Shown here piece after piece: positions 30,878 to 32,824 of a stretch of 64,000 nt of DNA. Positions within the stretch are counted from its first letter, which is position 1, and each line of letters begins with the position of its first letter. The notes beneath the pieces are model-generated. The model made no database searches and was not told the origin of the DNA. It was given only the letters and a program-made list of their open reading frames with translations. Source of the DNA: Naegleria gruberi (Eukaryota); the NCBI GenBank assembly GCA_000004985.1, contig GG738849.1; one strand, 5' to 3'. A program made the translations under genes and the position numbers.

Positions 30878-32824
30878 GTGCCGAAGAACATATCAAAATA
30901 TTGGAATCAATACCGTATTCAAATCATCTTAGCCACAATTTTATCATTACAAAGAAGCTCCATTGATGCAGAATTGTATGTGAAGGATCCATCATCAATG
31001 ATTTATGTATCAAAAGATGATGATTTGAAAAAACTTTCACCTCTGTCCATCCAATTAATTTTGGGAACCATAAGGCTTGTGAGTTGTTGGAATATATGAA
31101 GAATGTAAAAATGGATGCAATAATATTCCTAGTATTGATAACATTTTGCACAGAAAAAAACTACTCATGGAAGGAATTGATATGCATAAAAAGATCATGG
31201 AATATAAGATAGAATCCTTAAAGGTTGACAATGCACTGATGAACTTTTATACGAAATGTGAAATGCCAGATGAAGCATTAGAAATTTTTGACCACCTCAA
31301 AAGTGAAAAGAAACCAATTGATATTATAACATGGACTTGTACTATTCAAGCTTACATGTCCAAAAATCAAGTTTCAAAAGCTATGTCCTTACTCTCAGAA
31401 ATTCAATTATATCAAACCCCTGACCCAATATTGTTTTCAACAGTATTACATATTTGTGCTGAAAATAGGTTGATTGAAGAAGGACAGGAAATTCATCAAA
31501 GAATTAACAAATTGAAAAAGCAGAATATCATTTTAGACAATGCACTGATGAATTTTTATACGAAATGTGGAATGCCAGAAAAAGCATTAGAAATATTTGA
31601 AAAACTCAAAAGTGAAAAGAAGCCAATGGAGGTCATGATATGGAACTGTGCAATTCAAGCTCTTGGTGAACAAAAGAAGGCCATTGAGGCATTTTCTCTT
31701 TTCAAAGAAATGGAAAGTAATAGCATAATTCCAACTGAGATTACATTTAATATCTTGTTAAATATTTGTGCTGAAAATAAGTTGATTGAGGAAAGGACAG
31801 GAAATTCATCAAAGAATCAAAAAATTGAAAAAGCAGAATATCATTTTAGACAATGCATTGATGAATTTTTATACTAAATGTAAAATGCCAGATGAAGCAT
31901 TAGAAATATTTGAACAACTCAAAAATGAAAAGAAACCAATTGATATTATAACATGGACTTGTGCTATTCAAGCTCTTGTACAAAAGAAATGCATTGATGA
32001 GGCATTGGATTTACTTGAAACAAATGGCATCCAAGTCGACGAAGTGATTTATGTTGTACTTTTGACTGCATGTGCAAACGATGTGTCAATAGAAAAAGGT
32101 GAGCATGTTATCAAACTAATAGAATCGTCTGGAATGCTCACAGACCATATTATGTACGGAGCTGTTGTAAACTTTTATGCCAAAATTGGAAATATTCAAA
32201 AAGCTCTGTATTTTTTCAATGAATATGATGGCCCTCCTGAAAGTCTTTAATGATGTGGAAAGAGCTGAGAGAGCATTTAACATTTTATTAGAGCTCGATA
32301 AGGAGCAAGCAACTCATTATGTTCTAATGTCGCATGTGTACCTTCAAAGTGATCAACCAGAAAAAGCAAAAGAAATAAGGGAATTGATGAAAAAAAATGA
32401 GGTACAAAAGACACCTGGCATTACTACAATTGAAATTAATGGCAAAACTTATCATTTTTACTACAATGACGAAAGCCACCCCAAAAAGGAGGAAATATTT
32501 CAAGAATTGGACAAGTTATGCCAAGAAATGGAGCTCGCAGGCTATGTTCCAGACACGAGATGGGTTACTAAAACGGATGCCAATGATGAAGAAACAAAGA
32601 AACATTTACTTTCAAGGCATTCTGAAAAAATTGCATTATCATTTGCTTTCATTTCCCTTCCACCTGGATCACCAATAACAATACGAAATAATCTGAGAAT
32701 GTGTGGAGATTGTCACACAGCAACAAAGTTTATATCAAAAATCAGGAAGTGTGAAATTACGGTTAGAGATGCCAGTAGATATCATCACTTTAAGGATGGA
32801 AAGTGCAGCTGTGGAGACTTTTAA
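30878..32824 (+). CDS. PPR-E-DYW protein (plant-type DYW deaminase-domain PPR), frame disrupted by at least 3 single-nucleotide indels
   Basis: ORF 32177..32824 has an E-motif plus a complete DYW domain ([56 protein letters not shown]). ORFs 31146..31877 and 31786..32250 hold PPR repeats (DNALMNFYTKCxMPxxALEIFxxLKxEKKP). They overlap in different frames. The shifts sit at A7 (near 31155), gaggaaagg (near 31790) and T6 (near 32208). An upstream ORF 30878..31099 and a third frame carry further repeat-like sequence. Confidence 0.7.
31215..31985 (+). repeat. Internal tandem nucleotide repeat (3 copies, period ~315-320 nt) inside the PPR-DYW gene
   Basis: gacaatgca[c/t]tgatgaa[c/t]ttttatac[g/t]aaatgt[g/a][a/g]aatgccaga... 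recurs at ~31215, ~31535 and ~31849. Copies 1 and 3 are nearly identical over >120 nt. Confidence 0.8.

Follow-up and report, generated by a model that had tools for sequence, protein, structure and literature searches.

A probable young pseudogene of the DYW-type PPR family in Naegleria gruberi

Closest described systems and family assignment

The locus described here lies on the plus strand of a 64,000-nucleotide stretch of Naegleria gruberi DNA (assembly GCA_000004985.1, contig GG738849.1; hereafter "the window"). It carries a PLS-class pentatricopeptide repeat (PPR) array with E, E+ and DYW-deaminase domains on its C-terminal side (31075-32821, the stop codon ending at 32824), and is probably a young, and probably unprocessed, pseudogene of the DYW-type PPR family known from this organism since 2010, apparently an unannotated one. 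Knoop and Rudinger reportedly listed 10-11 DYW-type PPR genes for Naegleria in 2010. N. gruberi is the species in which DYW-type PPR proteins were first reported outside plants (PMC4202320, PMC3239186), and its approximately 10-11 genes of this type stand beside only two confirmed mitochondrial editing sites (PMC4202320). These genes have been discussed as a lineage-specific expansion (PMC4202320, PMC3239186), possibly after horizontal transfer, and lineage-specific DYW expansions are described for heteroloboseans, malawimonads and plants (PMC3239186, PMC4202320, bioRxiv 10.64898/2026.09.04.749523). The family, its expansion and the excess of factors over sites are already published; what the present locus adds is a disabled, apparently unannotated member. 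Disabled DYW copies in Naegleria are not mentioned in the literature covered, which does not extend to the original reports of 2010, 2011 and 2013, where the locus may be noted.

The plant PPR-E-DYW editing factors, represented by OTP86 (At3g63370; PDB 7o4e/7o4f) and by 9kfx, share with the locus the order of the domains, the PG-box region and the HxE, CxDCH and HH...CxC motifs; the features of the DYW clade, including the definition of the HxE(K) motif, have been set out elsewhere (PMC3239186). A sequence search of the PDB returned the synthetic PPR-DYW protein 9kfx (E=8e-67), the DYW domain of OTP86 (7o4e) and DYW1 (7w86). Unlike the land-plant factors, the locus is a protist nuclear gene, is disrupted, and ends in GDF rather than DYW. 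Its S-like motif, counted on the sequence, is 35 aa long, compared with 31-32 aa in the land-plant proteins; the lengths of Naegleria motifs depart from the plant consensus. To our knowledge, no MORF-type partners are known in Naegleria.

For the domain analysis the three open reading frames (ORFs) of the locus were joined at the apparent shifts, and the resulting translation of 590 aa was scanned against Pfam. The product matched PPR (137 bits), PPR_2 (126 bits), E_motif (62 bits, cut-off 27.3) and DYW_deaminase (129-130 bits, cut-off 24); E+ scored 26.5 bits on the 215-aa ORF and 23.8 bits on the concatenated translation (cut-off 24). The PPR motifs are arranged in P-L-S triplets with a period of 103-104 aa, as in the N. 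gruberi paralogs P0001, P0004 and P0027. In the multiple alignment TPGITTIEINGKTYHF falls on the PG box, and the second metal site (YHHF...CSC) is intact alongside HSEK and CGDCH.

These Pfam matches, together with the N. gruberi paralogs, confirm the plant-type PPR-E-DYW family proposed in an earlier, sequence-only reading of this DNA. Its suggestion of Naegleria is right as well, three ORFs of the window matching proteins of N. gruberi NEG-M exactly. That reading had also described a complete DYW domain preceded by an E motif and PPR repeats. The order of the domains is as it stated, but the deaminase lacks its final residue (it covers 1-92 of the 93 Pfam profile positions) and ends in GDF followed directly by the stop codon, whereas P0001 ends in GDFF (1-93/93) and others in (D/N/E)Y(W/F). 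The conserved start of E1 (W..LLGACR) is likewise missing, and the multiple alignment shows KVF in the locus where all of the other sequences have GACR.

The best database match to the 590-aa corrected translation was P0001, a 799-aa "predicted protein" (45% identity over 99% of the query), the identity rising to 63.5-65% in the E-DYW part. Conifer and other plant PPR-DYW proteins followed, at 30-33% identity over the full length. P0001 shares with the locus the organism, the architecture, the LMNFYTKCG motif and the unusual C-terminal end, which in P0001 carries a final F. The locus differs from it in having two frameshifts, in lacking the P2-L2-S2 motifs, the start of E1 and the last residue, and in being situated on another scaffold (850 kb vs 573 kb). 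For the 590-aa query a word-indexed search of the protein collection gave no N. gruberi protein that was identical or nearly so, nor did a metagenome scan reveal close relatives.

Frame breaks and age of inactivation

An uninterrupted ORF comprising both the array and the deaminase is not present. Three-frame translation and the ORF list instead give three overlapping ORFs on the plus strand, each in a frame of its own (31146-31877, 31786-32250 and 32177-32824, of 243, 154 and 215 aa, the last beginning with ATG). Expressed as coordinate modulo 3, the coding frame runs from 1 to 0, back to 1 and then to 2, that is, it changes three times. The lesions were mapped by three-frame translation, by tblastn with five homologs and by frameshift-aware protein-to-DNA alignment (Table 1), and by these means the three frame disruptions announced in the sequence-only reading were all recovered. 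Two of its break sites, an A7 run near 31155 and gaggaaagg near 31790, coincide exactly with a missing and an extra base, respectively. The coding sequence ahead of the first break (segment A) matches P0001 residues 199-232 with 47% identity in tblastn, and with eight A residues at this break the locus would read ...FCTEKKLLMEG, equal in length to the paralog's ...LCADNQLYEEG.

The third break had been placed at a T6 run, but homology in frame 1 continues past this run (32211-32216) through ...FFNEY(DGPP), and the true break is a deletion junction further downstream. The residues missing there comprise the P2-L2-S2 motifs and the start of E1, which are present in all five of the homologs compared. 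Across the junction the matched positions jump from 491 to 596 in P0001, from 227 to 338 in P0027, from 136 to 241 in P0030 and from ~484-582 to 603 in P0021. The earlier statement that a single-base change would restore each break is therefore valid for breaks 1 and 2; at break 3 such a change restores the frame only, with some 105-111 codons still missing.

The sequence at the junction (32216-32245) can be read in two ways: the bases GGCCCTCCT encode GPP in frame 1, where the paralog has NNPP, and ALL in frame 2, where the E1 motif of the paralog has TLL. This double reading of GGCCCTCCT may be a coincidence, or it may be the trace of microhomology at the deletion breakpoint.

The locus combines clear homology to the family with lesions that preclude a full-length product, as expected of a pseudogene. 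The 580 frame-corrected codons contain no nonsense codon, where base composition predicts one per 12. A stop would be created by 5.6% of the possible single substitutions, and the absence of stops places neutral divergence since inactivation below ~3% (95% bound). The deaminase and E domains score as well as those of intact paralogs (DYW 130 bits vs 125 and 116; E 62 bits vs 60 and 39). Tajima relative-rate tests against P0001, carried out with 11 outgroups, gave a slight excess of unique changes (e.g., 24 vs 16), with p>0.05 in every case. The lack of nonsense codons and the undiminished E-DYW scores indicate that inactivation is young. Since the nearest paralog is only 45% identical, the stop-free codons further suggest that the copy was under purifying selection for most of its history and was disabled only recently.

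From the family to which it belongs, the intact ancestor would have bound single-stranded mitochondrial RNA through about 11-12 PPR motifs, one motif per nucleotide, and its C-terminal zinc-dependent DYW cytidine deaminase (HSEK, CGDCH, HH...CSC) would have converted a nearby C to U. In the N. gruberi lineage the copy presumably came to lie between copine and cyclophilin, and it was then kept under purifying selection for most of its existence. Its disabling would have involved two single-base indels and the out-of-frame deletion of P2-L2-S2 and the E1 start, too little time having passed since then for nonsense codons to arise or for the E-DYW part to decay.

Several points weigh against a young pseudogene or limit what can be said of it. 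An undecayed 215-aa E-DYW ORF with its own ATG is also what is expected of a functional remnant, and finding no lesion in 600 nt, given three in ~1.75 kb, is not unusual (roughly p=0.3). The native start codon and any targeting sequence are beyond reconstruction from the sequence. The locus is called unannotated, apparently so, on the basis of a word-indexed protein search rather than the genome annotation file. Finally, the lesions are known from the assembled sequence, and a haplotype-specific null allele or local consensus errors could in principle underlie them.

The turnover of PPR genes by birth and death provides a further comparison, the locus too being an extra copy specific to its lineage, whose position is not conserved and whose repeat units have been homogenised within the gene. 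Relative to the published PPR expansions it stands on the "death" side, as a disabled copy. A freshly disabled, lineage-specific copy constitutes a small piece of evidence for birth-and-death turnover of the family, and suggests that some DYW members are dispensable, which is consistent with factors outnumbering sites. For annotation purposes the locus should be flagged as a pseudogene, and evolutionary studies might use it as a natural control for sequences "recently released from selection". The locus reveals no new mechanism and is probably an ordinary young pseudogene of a known family.

Table 1. Coordinates of the PPR-DYW locus, its lesions and its neighbours in the window
Feature	Position	Strand	Evidence or remark
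Cyclophilin-type peptidyl-prolyl isomerase gene, divergent upstream neighbour	29900-30706	-	Pfam Pro_isomerase, 151 bits
Stretch of non-coding appearance, from the cyclophilin ATG to where PPR motifs become recognisable	30707-31074	+	
Coding segment A (1 mod 3), ACELLEYMKNVKMDAIIFLVLITFCTE: last part of a P motif, then the beginning of the first L motif	31075-31155	+	Frameshift-aware alignment starts at 31075
Lesion 1: A7 run, one base missing	31154-31160	+	Frameshift-aware alignment to P0001: "1 nt missing" at 31158
Coding segment B (0 mod 3): 211 codons, L-S-P-L-S-P-L motifs	31158-31791	+	Stop-free
Three P-L-S triplet units (repeat family D1)	31171-31479, 31480-31792, 31793-32105	+	
Lesion 2: one extra A, gaggaAagg vs gaagaagg in the preceding repeat unit	31789-31791	+	"+1 nt extra" called at 31795; alignment of units 2 and 3
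Coding segment C (1 mod 3): 148 codons, S-P-L-S motifs, ending ...AKIGNIQKALYFFNEYDGPP	31795-32238	+	Next stop at 32248-32250
Lesion 3: deletion junction and frame change, ~105-111 codons absent	32227-32249	+	tblastn; bridged alignment
Coding segment D (2 mod 3): partial E1, E2, E+ and DYW deaminase	32240-32821	+	Inside ORF 32177-32824
E motif	~32246-32434	+	
E+ motif	~32447-32530	+	
DYW domain	~32540-32821	+	
HSE codons of the HxE(K) catalytic/zinc-binding motif	32618-32626 (HSEK 32618-32629)	+	Column kept in all aligned DYW domains
CGDCH codons, zinc-binding motif CxxC(H)	32702-32716	+	Alignment column conserved
Stop codon directly after ...CSCGDF	32822-32824	+	
Copine/vWA gene, convergent downstream neighbour	32859-33824	-	ORF 32862-33824 identical to N. 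gruberi EFC49096 / XP_002681840

Repeat units of the array

The sequence-only reading had described a very recent tandem duplication of ~315 nt, comprising three near-identical repeats, and neither part of this description could be upheld. The period of ~310 nt is that of the P-L-S triplet, common to all N. gruberi PLS paralogs. Direct repeats are spaced at 309 and 313 nt, with a 186-nt core that is 73% and 89% identical, and pairwise MAFFT alignment of the whole units gave 67-73% nucleotide identity, in a mosaic pattern with blocks of 86-100% per 30 columns. Tandem Repeats Finder reported nothing at a period of ~310 nt. Even the best tract, 88.7% identical over 222 nt, has a dS of 0.28 (dN/dS 0.34), and the other repeat cores have dS values of 0.30-0.45 with dN/dS of 0.35-0.46. 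The units of the locus thus appear to be appreciably diverged and under constraint.

At the protein level the units within the locus are 62% identical, against 33-52% identity to units of P0001. Those of the paralogs are far more homogeneous, reaching 93% aa identity in P0001 and 88-92% in P0004. Amplification or conversion of PLS triplets within genes is therefore a trait of the Naegleria family, of which the present locus is not an especially recent case. The near-identical internal triplets of P0001 and P0004 point to very recent within-gene amplification or gene conversion in those genes. The P0004 model (749 aa) ends without an E or DYW domain, and is perhaps truncated or a DYW-less PLS protein.

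Alternative explanations and genomic setting

The PPR-DYW locus lies on the strand opposite to both of its neighbours, the cyclophilin and copine genes, whose order and orientation are conserved in three heteroloboseans while the content of the interval varies. On an environmental heterolobosean contig (L008, 4021-5779) copine (73% identical, tblastx) and cyclophilin (83%) are adjacent, 34 nt apart. In N. lovaniensis (L001, 8001-13680) the two are separated by PP2C and by a non-PPR gene of 616 aa that lacks Pfam domains, and no DYW similarity was detected anywhere in 17 kb of this sequence. The copine gene of Willaertia has other neighbours. From this comparison the PPR-DYW copy would occupy a lineage-specific, variable slot, which appears to accept insertions repeatedly.

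Recognisable homology begins at ~31063-31075, inside a P motif, and not at 30878, where the sequence-only reading had set the start of the gene. The 368 nt upstream contain 4-8 stops per 122 codons in every frame, which is near the random expectation (~10 from composition), and their open pieces had no Pfam match. When this stretch was aligned in a frameshift-aware manner with four queries, the scores were 28-45 and the shuffle means 30-33; the best score (45 vs a shuffle mean of 32 +/- 5) was reached by 1 of 40 shuffles, and the similarity is marginal. The stretch may represent a promoter and 5' untranslated region, or long-decayed sequence.

It is conceivable, though unlikely, that a 5'-truncated PPR-E-DYW segment was copied into the interval between copine and cyclophilin and was never functional there. 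The abrupt beginning of PPR homology in the middle of a P motif, with random-like sequence upstream, is what such a partial duplicate would leave, and in relatives the slot is empty or otherwise filled. However, 580 stop-free codons have been retained despite 55% protein divergence from the nearest known paralog, and neutral drift since the split from P0001 is incompatible with this, unless a much closer parent gene existed that has been lost or is unannotated. Furthermore, the first in-frame ATG (31093-31095), the seventh codon of segment A, encodes the conserved Met of the P motif, at which the annotated P0001 protein also begins; the copy may for this reason not be truncated at its 5' end at all.

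A second alternative, for which we see little prospect, is that the PPR array is dead and the 215-aa 3' ORF survives as a stand-alone, trans-acting deaminase. In plants, DYW1 (PDB 7w86) and the short DYW proteins of the MEF8 type act as the deaminase for PPR proteins that have no DYW domain themselves (PMC9522420), and the ORF is comparable to these in size and content (an E/E+ remnant plus DYW). It has its own ATG, keeps every catalytic and zinc-binding motif intact, scores at least as high in Pfam as intact paralogs do and is not significantly accelerated in rate, and DYW1 is among the PDB matches. N. gruberi also has at least one annotated PLS-type protein whose model is without the E-DYW end (P0004). 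Against this, recent inactivation explains the lack of decay equally well, the ORF opens with ~14-21 residues of out-of-frame or junction sequence, and the terminal residue of the DYW domain is missing. Nothing points to an internal promoter or transcript, and such systems are not known from outside plants. In contrast to DYW1 and MEF8, the short ORF is known from its sequence and is most simply taken as what is left intact at the 3' end of a broken gene. That the remnant is retained and expressed, and acts in trans with DYW-less Naegleria PLS proteins, is by analogy with plants a slim possibility; if true, it would be a protist counterpart of DYW1/MEF8, a split editing system caught at its origin.

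It is also improbable, to a similarly high degree, that the gene is intact in the organism, the breaks having arisen as errors of consensus or assembly or being confined to a single null haplotype in a polyploid strain. Of the three breaks, two are indeed single-base differences in short A runs, a classic site of error. Yet ORFs of at least 150 aa make up 71% of the window, and the 21 longest intact ones (34 kb) keep their frame across 14 A/T runs of seven or more bases and 40 of six or more, as the DYW ORF itself does across an A8 run. At lesion 3, ~330 nt of non-repetitive sequence found in all homologs is gone, and the protein collection searched has no model for the locus. As this sequence lay between dissimilar flanks, a collapse of repeats is unlikely, and we regard an assembly error in general as improbable.

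Hardly credible is the proposal that the cell overcomes the breaks and makes a full-length protein, whether through small introns or through programmed frameshifting, ribosomal or transcriptional. Sequences resembling intron ends (GTGAGT...CCTAG) do occur at 31080-31132, but this interval encodes a PPR motif homologous to the paralogs and is exon. The alignment with homologs is contiguous at breaks 1 and 2, with no residues missing and no room left for an intron, and on these two grounds introns were rejected as an explanation. Break 3 is not spanned by any GT...AG interval of a credible intron length, and splicing could not restore the motifs lost there. Three independent programmed shifts in one gene would be unprecedented here.

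The cyclophilin ORF (29903-30706, minus strand) encodes 268 aa with a basic, Ser/Arg-rich tail and a weak FAM32A-like match (24 bits). It had no exact match in the protein collection, and the annotated model presumably differs in its start or in an intron. Scans of 29500-34000 revealed no Rfam families or tRNAs, and the ORFs on the opposite strand at the locus are short. When the E-DYW part alone served as query, the homology search yielded nothing but short fragments from plants and environmental sequences, with no Naegleria entry among them.

A second PPR gene is present in the window at 21353-22939 on the minus strand. It encodes a 529-aa P-class protein without E or DYW domains (PPR 69 bits, PPR_2 73 bits), is identical to EFC49089 / XP_002681833 and gives weak tblastn cross-matches with the DYW paralogs. 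A 52-aa Logan protein (P0319) had been clustered with EFC49089, with no obvious resemblance by eye; unrelated sequencing runs contain it on 25 contigs of 2-12 kb, and its assignment to the cluster looks spurious. It was discarded as a lead, the contigs to which it led (L002-L007) being unrelated. The GC content of the window is 29-38%, mostly 31-36%, and the Elp3 ORF at 38197-39864 is an exact match to a protein of N. gruberi NEG-M.

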